Shown here: positions 2,954 through 36,279 of the stretch, piece after piece
Layout of the letters: every line of letters begins with the position of its first letter
Position numbering within the stretch: the stretch's first letter is position 1
IMG/VR virus record: IMGVR_UViG_3300021957_000004
Source: a virus
Reading direction: 5' to 3' (one strand)
Length of the DNA: 64,000 nucleotides
The notes under the pieces: generated by a model
Told to the model about the DNA's origin: nothing
Database searches by the model: none
The model's input: only the letters and a program-made list of their open reading frames with translations
Translations under genes and position numbers: made by a program

Positions 2954-3327
2954 TGTATACTTTTAAAGAAAAGGATTTTGGAATGTATGAAGGTAAAACT
3001 TATCCACTAGAAACTCCTATGTTAGAAGGTGGACCAGAGCCAGAGTTAAATAAACCAAAGCGAAGCGGACCAGATGATCCTAAAAAATTCGTGGTTTATG
3101 TAAAAGACCCAAAGACAGGAAACGTTAGAAAAATAAATTTTGGTAATGAAAAAGATTTTGATGGCGGTAACGCTAAGATAAATAATAAAGATAGAGCTAA
3201 GGCTTTCTCAGATAGACATAATTGTCCAGCTAAGAAAGATAAACTATCTCCAGGTTATTGGTCTTGTAACTTACCGAGATATGCTAAAGAGCTAGGACTT
3301 ACAGGTGGTGGAAATTACTTTTGGTAA
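2953..3327 (+). CDS. Conserved phage hypothetical protein
   Basis: KKFVVYVKDPKTGNVRKINFG...RHNC...PGYWSC is a recognisable conserved phage domain. Confidence 0.65.
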   Translation: MYTFKEKDFGMYEGKTYPLETPMLEGGPEPELNKPKRSGPDDPKKFVVYVKDPKTGNVRKINFGNEKDFDGGNAKINNKDRAKAFSDRHNCPAKKDKLSPGYWSCNLPRYAKELGLTGGGNYFW

Positions 3328-30047: not shown

Positions 30048-30076
30048 TTTACATCCATGCTGTTTTACGGTATAAT
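30048..30076 (+). promoter_or_regulatory. T4-early-type promoter with upstream A-tract
   Basis: AAAAAAAGGTTTACA-17-TATAAT. Confidence 0.85.
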
Positions 30077-30105
30077 ACACCTATATTCAACAAAAAGGAG
30101 TTAAT

Positions 30106-30752: not shown

Positions 30753-30781
30753 TTTACAAACTACCAAAACTACGGTATAAT
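30753..30781 (+). promoter_or_regulatory. T4-early-type promoter
   Basis: A-tract, GGTTTACA-17-TATAAT. Confidence 0.85.
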
Positions 30782-30812
30782 ACATACATCATTTAAAAAT
30801 TAAGGAGTTAAA

Positions 30813-31734: not shown

Positions 31735-32000
31735 TGCATCAGTCCAAATATAGGGTATCAGTTAACAAAGTTAATAATGGTGTTCAACACATATATTCAT
31801 TTCCAAATGGTTATGGAGCTAGTGTAATTAAACATGATGGTAGCTATGGTGGTAACCTAGGACTATGGGAATTAGCTGTATTAGATGATGAAGGATCTTT
31901 ATGTTATTCTACACCTATTACATCTGATGTTATAGGACATCTTTCCGATGAGGAAGTTATTTTGAAATTAAATGAAATTAGGGGTTTACAAACATCGTAA
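31734..32000 (+). CDS. Conserved phage hypothetical protein
   Basis: FPNGYGASVI...SYGG..GLWELAVL...TPITSDVIG; start moved to 31734. Confidence 0.7.
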   Translation: MHQSKYRVSVNKVNNGVQHIYSFPNGYGASVIKHDGSYGGNLGLWELAVLDDEGSLCYSTPITSDVIGHLSDEEVILKLNEIRGLQTS

Positions 32001-32013
32001 ACTATGGTATAAT
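31985..32013 (+). promoter_or_regulatory. T4-early-type promoter
   Basis: GGGGTTTACA-17-TATAAT. Confidence 0.85.
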
Positions 32014-32047
32014 ACACCCTACAAACAAATATTAATAAGGAGTTAAT

Positions 32048-32544: not shown

Positions 32545-32810
32545 GTCAATATGATAGCAGAGTCGAAAAACAAAGATTAAAGATAGAAGCTGAAGAATGG
32601 GCCAAAGGTGTTAAATCACTACACGCACATTCATTGGATTCAATGCACTATGACAATCGACCACAGGATACCGAAGATGGTAAAAATGTTATGGATATAG
32701 AGTTCAATGACGGAAGCGTTAAAAGAACTTTACAAAATGGTGAAGTAGTTATATTAGGAAAAGCCTTAAGAGGTAAAGAATTACTAAATCAATTTATTAG
32801 AAATCAATAA
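32541..32810 (+). CDS. Hypothetical protein
   Basis: AGGAG RBS. Confidence 0.6.
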   Translation: MSQYDSRVEKQRLKIEAEEWAKGVKSLHAHSLDSMHYDNRPQDTEDGKNVMDIEFNDGSVKRTLQNGEVVILGKALRGKELLNQFIRNQ

Positions 32811-32814
32811 GGGG

Positions 32815-32843
32815 TTTACATCTCTTAGAAATTGTGGTATAAT
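32815..32843 (+). promoter_or_regulatory. T4-early-type promoter
   Basis: GGGGTTTACA-17-TATAAT with TGTGG extension. Confidence 0.85.
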
Positions 32844-32850
32844 ATATATT

Positions 32851-33207
32851 ATGAGTACAACAAACTTTTACATGGGTTCATTAAGATATGGACCATCTGG
32901 GAAAAAAAGAAAGAAGCATGCGGCTAACCCAGTTAAAAAAACAAGGCCAAAGTTCATACCTATGGAAATAGATCCTGTTAAACAGGCAGCAGCATTAAAA
33001 GCTGCAGATATCAAAGAGCAAGAAAGAGTAGATTTTCTACAAAGACTTTCCAAGACTCAAAATGATAACATGGGTAAAAAAGAAAATCTCCAATATACCG
33101 GAGAAAGAAAATTAGTAGGTATTGCAACAATGCATAAGTCAAATGCAGTACCAATCTTCGAAGACGATAAGGAACACGCTATAGATATAGCACGTATGCG
33201 AAGATGA
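32851..33207 (+). CDS. Conserved basic hypothetical protein
   Basis: YTGERKLVGIATMHKSNAVPIF...IARMRR. Confidence 0.7.
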   Translation: MSTTNFYMGSLRYGPSGKKRKKHAANPVKKTRPKFIPMEIDPVKQAAALKAADIKEQERVDFLQRLSKTQNDNMGKKENLQYTGERKLVGIATMHKSNAVPIFEDDKEHAIDIARMRR

Positions 33208-33215
33208 ACAATTTC

Positions 33216-33266
33216 GGGGTATGTCGCTCTTTAACTCCTTATCTTTCAGAATGCGACCTCTGCCCC
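33216..33266 (+). ncRNA. Putative regulatory RNA hairpin exposing an anti-Shine-Dalgarno loop
   Basis: Stems GGGGTA/TGCCCC, GTCGC/GCGAC, TCT/AGA; loop TTAACTCCTTATCTTTC. Confidence 0.5.
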
Positions 33267-33285
33267 ACTTTATTATAAGGAAATT

Positions 33286-34467
33286 ATGGCACTTAAAAAA
33301 TTAAATAAGAAAAGAATCTCGATGAGGAAAGATAGAGTTTCTTTAGATGCAAAGATGATGGGTCCAGAACCTCTCTTCACAGAAGAAGATGGACACATGG
33401 ACATTGAAGAACAATACGATGGAAAGATTGGCCGAAAATGGGCTAAAGCTTCCAGATGGTATAATTACTTTTATCAAAACAAAGATTACCTTCCACACGC
33501 AGTAGACTTTCTAAGAGATGTATATGGTTGGGATGATGATAAGTTAAAAGTCTTTTTACGTTTACCCGATTATACAATTAGAAGAGTCGGTGGGGTTGGC
33601 GTTATATGGTCAAGAGGTTACAAATATGATCCATTGTTTATCGAAGGCTTTAAACCTATTACTGATGAACTATATGAAAAAGCTACTTTATTAGAAGAGC
33701 AAAGAGTAGAAGCAGTAAAAGAAAAACCTAAAATGCCTAGTATACAAGAAAGAACTAGAGCAAAGGTATTAGAAACCATTTATATGGAATTTGATGTTAA
33801 CGTAGTTGATGAATGGATGGAAGGTAATTATAAAGTTGACTTCGAAGCATTCTCTCTATTTAAAAACTTTGGATTAAAAGGTAATGCTATTTCTATATTC
33901 CAAGACATGATCGATGTAGAATATCTAGGACTAAAAGAAGCATACGATAAAACATGTCCTGATTGTGTAGAAGCTTATTCACACATTACGAAAGGCAATA
34001 AAAAGAAAATGCTCAACGTATACGACAATATTTATTCTGACCTTGATAAACTTAAAGATAGCTTTAAAGCGACGCGTAAGGCGCGTGTACGTGTCCCTAG
34101 GAGCAACGAACAACAGGTATCTAAGTTAAACTATATGAAAGAAGACTTAGCAGCTAAGTTAACATCTATTAATCCTATCCTTATTCCAACCGCATCTAAG
34201 CTATATGTTTATAATGTTAAACAAGGTAAGCTTGCAGAATACACTGCATTAGATGCTAAGGGTTTCGAGATCGCTGGATCTACTATTAAGAACTATGATA
34301 CTAAACTAAGTAAAATAACTAAGTTAAGAAAGCCAGAGGAAATACTACCGCTTATTCTAAACAAAACAGAAAAGCAAATACTAAAAGTATGGAAAGGATT
34401 AACAACAAAGATTTATGAACCAACAGGCCGAATCAACAAGGACTGTATTTTAATGAGAGTAATATAA
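33286..34467 (+). CDS. Conserved hypothetical protein upstream of gp33
   Basis: 393 aa; C-terminal KLRKPEE...GRINKDCILMRV. Confidence 0.7.
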   Translation: MALKKLNKKRISMRKDRVSLDAKMMGPEPLFTEEDGHMDIEEQYDGKIGRKWAKASRWYNYFYQNKDYLPHAVDFLRDVYGWDDDKLKVFLRLPDYTIRRVGGVGVIWSRGYKYDPLFIEGFKPITDELYEKATLLEEQRVEAVKEKPKMPSIQERTRAKVLETIYMEFDVNVVDEWMEGNYKVDFEAFSLFKNFGLKGNAISIFQDMIDVEYLGLKEAYDKTCPDCVEAYSHITKGNKKKMLNVYDNIYSDLDKLKDSFKATRKARVRVPRSNEQQVSKLNYMKEDLAAKLTSINPILIPTASKLYVYNVKQGKLAEYTALDAKGFEIAGSTIKNYDTKLSKITKLRKPEEILPLILNKTEKQILKVWKGLTTKIYEPTGRINKDCILMRVI

Positions 34468-34706
34468 TGGATATATTAAATGAAAAGATTATGACTAAGA
34501 AAAGATTTAGTACAGCAGTAGAAGAGCTAGTTGCTAAAAACAAAATGTCATATATGGATGCTATGAACTACGTGATAGAAAAAAGAGGTATGGATTATGG
34601 AAACATAAAGAAACTACTATCTGATTCTTTAAAAGAAAAAGTTACAGCAGAAGCCCAGGGGTTAAACCTAATCAGAGATAAGAAAGGTAATACATTACCA
34701 GTATGA
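34467..34706 (+). CDS. gp33: Late promoter transcription co-activator gp33
   Basis: FS..VE.LV....SYMDA...LKEKV.AEA..LNL...LPV; T4 synteny. Confidence 0.85.
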   Translation: MDILNEKIMTKKRFSTAVEELVAKNKMSYMDAMNYVIEKRGMDYGNIKKLLSDSLKEKVTAEAQGLNLIRDKKGNTLPV

Positions 34707-35293
34707 TGCAACCTTTTGATGCATATAGTATGTACAATGCACTTAAGCTGCATTTCGAACAAGACAGCTATGATGCAGTTAAATACAATTTTAAATCTAA
34801 CGTAAGTCCTAAATCGTTCTTTGCTAGGAAAGATAAATACTTCTTTGCCAAACTAGCTAAGACTTATGACGATAAACTCTTACAGTATTATATAGCTAAC
34901 TTTAAGAATGGGATTAGTTACGTTGGGGATATGCTAAACGAAGGTGGTGAAACTAACTTTAAGCAGCATATGAAAGTTCGCGAGTCAATACATCGTGAGT
35001 TTCAAAAAGATATAAATAGTTTAATAGATATGGATATACAGTTTGATGATTTGTTTATGACAAAGCAAACGCATCCATTGATAGTAAAATTATTGATGAG
35101 AGAAGAGATTAGTTTAGAGACTGTTGTTATTCTGGATTCAATATTAGGGTTTATGAAACGTGAAGGATCTAAGATAACTGAGACAATTATTTGGCCAGAT
35201 ATCTCTAGAAAGATTATGAAGTATAAACCTTTTGTAGACTTTAATAAAGATAAATGCGTAAGTATTATCAAAAAAGGGTTTACAAAACCATAG
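34703..35293 (+). CDS. gp59: Helicase loader gp59
   Basis: Y..YNALKLHF...YD..KY, RKDKYFFAKL, ISLETVVILD; synteny 33-59-32. Confidence 0.85.
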   Translation: MMQPFDAYSMYNALKLHFEQDSYDAVKYNFKSNVSPKSFFARKDKYFFAKLAKTYDDKLLQYYIANFKNGISYVGDMLNEGGETNFKQHMKVRESIHREFQKDINSLIDMDIQFDDLFMTKQTHPLIVKLLMREEISLETVVILDSILGFMKREGSKITETIIWPDISRKIMKYKPFVDFNKDKCVSIIKKGFTKP

Positions 35294-35307
35294 GAGTGTG
35301 GTATAAT
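35279..35307 (+). promoter_or_regulatory. T4-early-type promoter of gp32
   Basis: GGGTTTACA-17-TATAAT with TGTGG; late TATAAATA also at 35011. Confidence 0.8.
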
Positions 35308-35370
35308 ATACTCATTATATTATGAACAAAGTGGATAATTCAACAATACAGTGTACATGGAGAAAATAAA

Positions 35371-36279
35371 ATGTCATTCGAAAACTTAAAGAGCGCACGA
35401 GGCTCATCAATCGATAAACTCGTAAAAGCTGCAGAAGCAGTATCCACCCCAAAAGCGGACAACTCATCTTATGGTGATGATCGTCTTTGGAAACCTACAA
35501 GAGATAAAGCAGGAAACGGTTACGCGGTAATCAGATTCTTACCTGCCAAAGAAGGTGAAGATCTTCCTTGGGTAAGATACTGGGATCACGGATTTAAAGG
35601 TCCTAATGGTCTATGGTACATAGAGAAATCATTAACCTCTATTAATCAACCAGACCCTGTCTCAGAACAAAATACTGTTCTTTGGAATACTGGTAGAGAT
35701 GAGGATAAAGCTATTGCACGTGAAAGGAAAAGACGTTTACATTATGTTTCAAACATTCTAGTAATCAGTGATCCTGAACACCCAGAAAATAATGGAAAGG
35801 TATTCCTTTACCAATTCGGTAAAAGAATCTTCGACAAAGTTATGGAAGCTATGCAACCACAATTCGCCGATGAGCAACCTTGTAATCCATACGACTTCTG
35901 GGAAGGCGCTGACTTTAAAATTAAAATCAGAAAAGTAGATGGATGGGTTAACTATGATAAATCAGAGTTCTCAAGTCCTTCAGCATTATTTGATAGTAAT
36001 GAAGCAGAGCTAGAAAGTGTATATGGGAAACTACATTCATTAAGTGAATTCACTGATCCTAAATCATATAAATCATATGACGAACTTAAAGCCAAACTTA
36101 ATAAAGTATTAGGTGTTGATGCTGGAATTACTGCCGATATGGCAACTATGACTAGCGCTCCTGTTCCAACAATGGAACAAACACCTTCAATGATAGAAGA
36201 ATCTCCAGCAATGGAAACCTCTTCTAGCGATGAAGATGATACGTTAAGTTACTTTAATAAATTAGCTAACGAGAGTTAA
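35371..36279 (+). CDS. gp32: ssDNA-binding protein gp32
   Basis: DDRLWKP..DKAGNGYAVIRFLP, PYDFWEGADFKIK, NYDKSEF, acidic tail. Confidence 0.95.
   Translation: MSFENLKSARGSSIDKLVKAAEAVSTPKADNSSYGDDRLWKPTRDKAGNGYAVIRFLPAKEGEDLPWVRYWDHGFKGPNGLWYIEKSLTSINQPDPVSEQNTVLWNTGRDEDKAIARERKRRLHYVSNILVISDPEHPENNGKVFLYQFGKRIFDKVMEAMQPQFADEQPCNPYDFWEGADFKIKIRKVDGWVNYDKSEFSSPSALFDSNEAELESVYGKLHSLSEFTDPKSYKSYDELKAKLNKVLGVDAGITADMATMTSAPVPTMEQTPSMIEESPAMETSSSDEDDTLSYFNKLANES

Follow-up and report, generated by a model that had tools for sequence, protein, structure and literature searches.

The window analysed here, a stretch of 64,000 nucleotides, belongs to a viral contig of 130,478 bp and 35.5% G+C from a marine T4-type phage. 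The record is 72% complete, and the 130-kb genome containing the window is referred to below as G000. Downstream of the locus of interest lie gp33, gp59 and gp32, and gp32 is 56% identical to its counterpart in Pelagibacter phage HTVC008M. The contig also encodes a curli/cyclase cluster, bS21 and RegA, gene content known from pelagimyophages (PMC7029224). The phage is an uncultured marine T4-like virus and a relative of the SAR11 phages. RegA is encoded at G000:C1:39125-39487 (PF01818, 153 bits). The bS21 gene, at G000:C1:49668-49931 (L149 1435-1686), encodes 83 aa (PF01165, 59 bits), has its own early promoter and adjoins the 5′ side of uvsX; its leader, AAUAAGAGGAAUUAAUG, showed no complementarity to the hairpin loop described below. 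One tRNA-Ala(UGC) gene lies at G000:C1:44976-45051.

The locus consists of a hairpin between two genes of the same orientation. Its features are:

32815..32843, + strand: leaderless-type early promoter nearest the hairpin, TTTACA-N17-TATAAT, conserved in relatives
32851..33207, + strand: leaderless gene of 118 aa (phrog_27048, hypothetical), with its stop 8 nt ahead of the hairpin
33216..33221, + strand: 5′ arm of stem P1, GGGGUA, partner 33261-33266, including U33220.G33262
33222 against 33258-33260, + strand: internal loop, U against CUC, as read from the sequence
33223..33227, + strand: 5′ arm of stem P2, GUCGC, partner 33253-33257
33228..33252, + strand: open hairpin loop of 25 nt, unpaired in the MFE and centroid folds
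33230-33243, + strand: whole complement region of the loop, matching the tagged initiation regions
33233-33243, + strand: anti-tag loop core AACUCCUUAUC, unchanged across clades A, B and C, whose stems are unrelated
33253..33257, + strand: 3′ arm of P2, GCGAC, from the alignment of relatives
33261..33266, + strand: 3′ arm of P1, UGCCCC, followed by the U-rich tail ACUUUAUUAU
33286..34467, + strand: gene of 393 aa (phrog_11903, hypothetical), with the hairpin upstream in every case and gp33 and gp59 next

Segment 33231-33240 of the loop reads TTAACTCCTT. Folded as a single sequence, the hairpin gave −18.5 kcal/mol (z = −1.67), which is not significant alone; since this fold was unremarkable, the case for structure is carried by comparative covariation. 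A three-part stem had been described in an earlier reading made from the sequence only. Two of its parts, P1 and P2, were recovered, and the third, a UCU/AGA pairing, is possible but was neither predicted nor conserved. All six P1 pairs were retained in 12 distinct relatives (alignment A2), two of them with compensatory changes, and the U.G pair at 33220/33262 became U-A or C-G in other relatives. The fourth pair of P2 occurred as G-C, A-U or C-G.

For the 393-aa protein, Pfam, a PDB sequence search and the Atlas returned nothing usable. The protein is conserved beside gp33 in the window's clade, and distant homologues were seen in Caulobacter phage Cr30, Sinorhizobium phiM12-like phages and the Pseudomonas jumbo phage PA5oct. 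The start region of its gene (window 33276-33296, AAAUUAUGGCA, kept in clade A) is similar to the T4 RegA operators AAAUUAUG (PMC3014915).

Conservation and covariation of the hairpin

Relatives were gathered from IMG/VR and JGI metagenomes, with the downstream 393-aa protein as the anchor. From 334 confirmed relatives 80 loci were kept, and 79 of these included upstream sequence and could be assessed. The hairpin was present before the same 393-aa gene in 75 of the 79 metagenomic loci, following the early p105-p59-p89-(p118) block. Such strong conservation of stem and loop answers the concern, raised in the sequence-only reading, that neither might be kept in related phages.

Covariation of the stem, suggested at that stage as a check, was also observed. 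In clade A, to which the window belongs, 98.5% of cells were paired across 12 distinct sequences, compared with ∼40% when partners were slid, and four pairs showed compensatory changes. Clade C has an 11-bp stem, 96.4% paired, in which compensatory changes affected five pairs and G.U pairs were numerous, and clade B stems took the form GGGGG/GGG. More stem designs were found in L005, L194, L235, L236, L249, L255, L274 and L277. At least ten unrelated designs preserved pairing, with stems exchanged wholesale around a near-invariant loop core, (A/G)ACUCCUUAUC(A), in loops of 19-27 nt. The G.U pairs would be C.A on the other strand, which fixes the + strand as the one that folds. In clade B (L137 2349-2500; L023, L024, L031 and L032), an ORF of ∼50 aa encoding a single-pass membrane protein separates the hairpin from the p393 homologue; the window lacks this ORF.

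The hairpin is single-copy in G000, and a genome-wide scan for CUCCU in the loops of GC-stems returned this hairpin alone. A weak match of model R1 at 3025-3084(−) and a loop-like string within uvsX were considered as second copies and rejected as chance matches in coding sequence. The hairpin was absent from cultured HTVC008M, Mosig and Melnitz, and a nucleotide search of the phage collection gave no match. An Rfam cmscan of 32700-33700 with E up to 10 left the element without a match, C4 and ribosomal leaders included. The hairpin is outside every described RNA family. On unrelated contigs, the L051 group carries a GGGGUG...CACCCC hairpin antisense to local genes.

Several other identities were tried for the element. 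A tmRNA/tRNA-like minihelix or RNase P substrate (GGGG...CCCC-ACC) was rejected, with ARAGORN negative and the 3′ ACC and 5′ context unconserved across clades; ARAGORN found no tmRNA in the window or in the 72%-complete genome. Mosig (L151 1830-2168) and Melnitz (L152 3232-3684) have a two-piece (permuted) tmRNA gene directly 5′ of gp33, the place held here by the hairpin and the 393-aa gene, and model R1 gave no match to these tmRNA regions. Pairing of the loop with GAUAAGGAA in the 118-aa gene was discarded; that gene is deleted in L011 and L137, both of which keep the hairpin, so the hairpin is independent of it. A small ORF across the hairpin was dismissed on its unconserved ATG and on loop indels that are not multiples of three. 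A late promoter in or after the hairpin was dismissed as well, TATAAATT being found in some relatives only and lying too near the ATG.

The early leader tag and its match to the loop

Early promoters of the form TTTACA-N17-TATAAT fell into two classes in every genome: leaderless, with the ATG 6-10 nt past the −10 box (132 instances in 61 sequences), and leadered, with the tag UAAGGAGUUA. The leaderless class makes up about half of the early promoters in G000, and the split is kept in all relatives. At the 32815 promoter the ATG lies 7 nt past the −10 box, which makes it leaderless, in agreement with the earlier statement that its first gene has no leader. Promoters of this class in the window include 32815-32853 and 35279-35330; HTVC008M likewise has many of leaderless type. 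The tagged sites in the window lie 20-30 nt 3′ of their promoters:

30095..30104, + strand: tagged RBS 1, AAGGAGUUAA, first gene of early promoter 30048-30076; 10-nt complement, duplex −12.8 kcal/mol
30801..30812, + strand: tagged RBS 2, UAAGGAGUUAAA, first gene of early promoter 30753-30781; 12-nt complement, duplex −15.3 kcal/mol
32035..32046, + strand: tagged RBS 3, AUAAGGAGUUAA, first gene of early promoter 31985-32013; 12-nt complement, duplex −14.9 kcal/mol

Across 40 distinct promoter-proximal leaders, the logo was T.88 A.90 A.95 GGAG T.93 T.90 A.88. Among 155 internal ribosome sites, T followed GGAG in only 12%, A/G being found otherwise, and position −3 showed no preference. All six promoter-proximal AGGAG sites of G000 read AGGAGU, and its internal sites were mostly AGGAGA. 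The tag UAAGGAGUUA is specific to promoter-proximal ribosome sites. It extends beyond the reach of 16S-tail pairing through the anti-SD CCUCC, and its complement is exactly the invariant loop core. Tagged units were also seen outside the window, at G000:C1:31996-34188 (L197) and 34297-35424 (L198); their first genes encode a ‘peptidase’ of 730 aa (phrog_459, CobT-like) and an AAA+ protein of 375 aa (phrog_249, CobS-like). With such genes at the head of tagged units, the tag is not confined to small ORFans.

A genome-wide count, proposed in the sequence-only reading, found four copies of AAGGAGTTAA in the window and the same four in the whole 130-kb genome. Shuffled sequences gave a mean of 0.32 copies, and none of 100 reached four. 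Three copies are on the + strand, at 30095, 30802 and 32037, and the fourth is inverted within the loop, at 33231-33240 (−). The perfect complements of 10, 12 and 12 nt described earlier at 30095, 30801 and 32035 were reproduced. G000 has six leaders with a 10-13 nt match to the loop. Half of them are in the window; the other three match over 10, 13 and 10 nt and lie 38-60 kb from the hairpin, with the best loop match (13 nt, −18.8 kcal/mol) at a distance of 57 kb. All G000 complements of the loop that span at least 10 nt and are followed by an ATG lay behind early promoters, except for one 10-nt match without the SD core. Predicted loop:leader duplexes ranged from −12.6 to −18.8 kcal/mol, compared with −7.7 to −9.1 kcal/mol for duplexes with the 16S tail, and the tagged leaders were predicted to be unstructured.

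Variation among relatives was exploited to compare loop and tag, and the two were found to covary. In G006 (V5 type) the loop is UUUACUCCUUUUUA, and the three leaders, with AAAAAGGAGUAAA or AAAAGGAGUAA, are complementary to it over 13, 11 and 13 nt. When the G006 loop was set against ordinary leaders, or ordinary loops against G006 leaders, only ∼7 nt matched. At tag position −3, G006 has A in place of U, and its open loop has the reciprocal change, A to U. For the G006 change after GGAGU, the mirroring base is part of that lineage's innermost stem, so the case is weaker at that position; in V5, three complementary bases are inside the innermost stem. G001 has the loop CUAACUCC and GGAGUUAG in both of its leaders (matches of 14 and 12 nt), and L168 pairs the loop UAAACUCC with the leader GGAGUUUA. 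The covariation is imperfect: in clade A6, which has the loop CUAACUCC, just one of four leaders carries GGAGUUAG. One uncompensated position each was found in G002 and in V6/G007. Because the loop varies little, the covariation comes from few independent events (V5/V6, B3 and B2, with no correction for the tree).

The occurrence of the two elements was also compared. HTVC008M, Mosig and Melnitz, which are without the hairpin, have one TAAGGAGTT apiece, and L270-272, L285 and L028-30 have neither hairpin nor tag. Among these sequences, phages and loci that lack the hairpin also lack the tag. Two marks of a trans-acting sRNA were found, a multi-target seed in the match to six G000 leaders and compensatory evolution in G006, G001 and L168.

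Alternative readings

The hairpin lies 1.2 kb from the third tagged RBS (32035-46), in the same orientation and without a predicted terminator in between, so that the two would be co-transcribed; this RBS probably shares a read-through transcript with the hairpin. It is conceivable that the hairpin acts strictly in cis, folding onto the tagged leader of its own transcript (from 31985 and upstream promoters) as a first-cistron timer or feedback device with no targets in trans. Every genome has co-oriented tagged promoters 1-3 kb upstream of the hairpin, no strong terminator is predicted in the intervening stretch, kinetics favour intramolecular pairing, and the icaR 3′UTR offers a precedent (PMC3868564). 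The same complementarity, however, is found in the G000 leaders 38-60 kb off with other modules between, the best match among them, and the covarying G006 leader is 15 kb distant, which makes a strictly cis role unlikely. Slightly less probable again is that the loop serves as a site for a protein or ribosome factor, either as a 16S-tail mimic titrating an anti-SD binder such as bS21 or within a terminator or stability hairpin whose loop is kept by a protein, with its likeness to the RBS a by-product. CUCCUU is common to the loop and the anti-SD sequence, the phage bS21 gene is driven by an early promoter of its own, and the hairpins of clade C, L005 and L194 are textbook terminators, with a U5-8 tract and then an early promoter. 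The host anti-SD would nevertheless leave unexplained why loop positions outside CUCCU covary with the phage tag, and HTVC008M lacks the hairpin, yet bS21 is reported to belong to the core genes of all pelagimyophages (PMC7029224). As for termination, loops of 19-27 nt are atypical for terminators; the window loop has 25 nt rather than the short 3-8 nt. The window stem is GC-rich and its tail, ACUUUAUU, has a weak U-tract, a consensus scan made no call, and the tail is variable in clades A and B but a full U6-8 tract in clade C. From 32815 to 35011 no early or late promoter was found, and expression of the 393-aa gene, gp33 and gp59 therefore depends on read-through of the window hairpin. Termination, limited to some lineages, is thus optional, whereas the displayed loop is constant.

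The motif could also act as DNA, with TAAGGAGTTA a double-stranded box for a phage regulator, placed downstream of a number of early promoters, with a single inverted copy ahead of the 393-aa gene. Binding sites of a single protein would likewise co-evolve with it and with one another, and the boxes do lie at +20 to +35 of early promoters. We regard this as improbable, since the inverted copy is always in the loop of a covarying, G.U-bearing repeat that makes sense for + strand RNA alone, the direct copies are always at SD distance from an ATG, and orientation is unmixed across ∼75 loci. Both the DNA-operator and the protein-binding readings are weaker than pairing between RNAs, for they leave unexplained the covarying stem with its G.U pairs, the constant opposite orientation and the covariation at positions beyond the SD core. 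Most doubtful of all, and contradicted by the comparative data, is the proposal, made in the sequence-only reading, of a cis translational switch of the 393-aa gene, by pairing of CCUUAU with AUAAGG (33275-33280), together with the suggestion that the loop is the RBS remnant of a lost minus-strand gene. AUAAGG does lie 6 nt 5′ of the ATG in the window, but it is missing from most relatives, which have no SD there (for example CCCCACCUUAAAAUUAUG); elsewhere the gene is leaderless behind its own promoter, has another SD, or is separated from the hairpin by a small ORF. With initiation of the downstream gene varying in this way, the coupling to late-transcription and replication genes that had been envisaged is not conserved. 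The minus strand has neither an ORF nor a start codon at RBS distance. A remnant is excluded by the purifying selection that has acted on the loop through ten or more stem designs.

Proposed role and relation to known systems

The best reading, to which we assign a probability of roughly 0.6, is that the hairpin would serve as an anti-tag RNA: by pairing with the tagged early mRNAs, both in trans and in cis, it would keep the 30S subunit from binding. This reading draws on the structure and its conservation, the complementarity, the restriction of the tag to one class of site, and the covariation of loop and tag. In this mechanism the + strand RNA would form a stable stem that keeps a pyrimidine-rich anti-tag loop open, and the subset of leadered early mRNAs would be marked by an extended initiation tag, (U/G)AUAAGGAGUUAA. 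Pairing would involve 10-13 nt of the tag, so that the loop would mask the SD together with the spacer as far as the AUG. Competition between this pairing and the 30S subunit would lower translation of tagged early genes and probably also their stability, leaving internal cistrons and leaderless early mRNAs unaffected. Because it stands at the end of the early block served by the promoters at 31985 and 32815, the hairpin could act in cis on its own leader and in trans on distant leaders. In lineages with a U-tract and a promoter next, it would also work as an intrinsic terminator, and the early RNA would have its 3′ end there. The same class of early promoter drives both the hairpin and its targets, and so a temporal switch is not obvious. 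The original proposal that the loop RNA pairs with the initiation regions of SD-led early mRNAs has thus gained support from the invariant loop, the promoter-proximal tag, the covariation and the co-occurrence; pairing in vivo, repression as its outcome and action in trans are what we infer from these patterns.

The closest layout is that of the Staphylococcus aureus icaR mRNA. In this mRNA (PMC3868564), a 3′-UTR UCCCCUG pairs with the mRNA's own SD, blocking the initiation complex and creating an RNase III substrate. Both systems have a pyrimidine-rich anti-SD motif 3′ of a coding region, and the same layout is possible for the 31985 transcript. Compared with icaR, the motif here is displayed in a long hairpin loop and reaches 4-6 nt past the SD into a private tag. 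It is also a phage element, predicted from sequence, and is complementary to a whole class of leaders, distant ones included.

C/U-rich loops that target SD regions occur in the hairpins of S. aureus RNAIII and in RsaE, and the C4 antisense RNA of phages P1 and P7 is phage-encoded and co-transcribed with its target. The present element resembles these in displaying, in a loop, a seed that would pair with the ribosome-binding sites of several targets. It differs in that its target set is defined by a promoter-proximal tag, and in being a predicted RNA with no Rfam match.

To our knowledge, the only agents known to shut off early genes post-transcriptionally in T4-type phages are proteins, namely RegB and RegA. 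T4 RegB cleaves early SDs at GGAG, and RegA acts in competition with the ribosome (PMC3014915). As in that system, control here would be post-transcriptional, class-wide and directed at the initiation region of early mRNAs, but the recogniser would be an RNA rather than a protein. RegB was not detected in the 72%-complete record; RegA is present.

The uniformity of the tagged leaders recalls the PeSL cassettes of T4-type phages, in which a stem-loop, an early promoter, an SD and a start codon recur many times per genome as recombination modules (PMC4122927). Early promoter, leader and SD are similarly uniform here, and in clade C a stem-loop/terminator lies directly 5′ of an early promoter, a stem-loop-promoter arrangement seen in clade C relatives only. 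In contrast to PeSL, there is one hairpin per genome, its loop is conserved, and no promoter follows the window hairpin; PeSL loops are not reported as SD complements. Uniform PeSL-like modules may help to keep the tag uniform, and the uniformity of leaders could stem in part from the spread of such cassettes by recombination (PMC4122927).

More tentatively, early translation in these phages may be organised in two tiers: leaderless mRNAs that are untouchable, and an address-tagged set ruled by one anti-tag hairpin, the two partners co-evolving lineage by lineage as lock and key. Such a system would do with RNA what RegB and RegA do in T4, possibly in concert with the bS21 of the phage. The natural lock-and-key pairs, UAAGGAGUUAA with AACUCCUUAUC versus AAAAAGGAGUAAA with UACUCCUUUUU, are compensatory pairs in themselves, with which the idea can be tested directly in a heterologous reporter. 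The hairpin defines a new and widespread RNA motif, hosted by abundant ocean viruses related to the SAR11 phages, for which genetics is not yet possible. That early mRNAs divide so sharply into leaderless and tagged ones is relevant to the way in which bS21-encoding phages direct host ribosomes, and the comparative data point to an RNA that would use an extended tag at the ribosome site to recognise an entire class of early messages.
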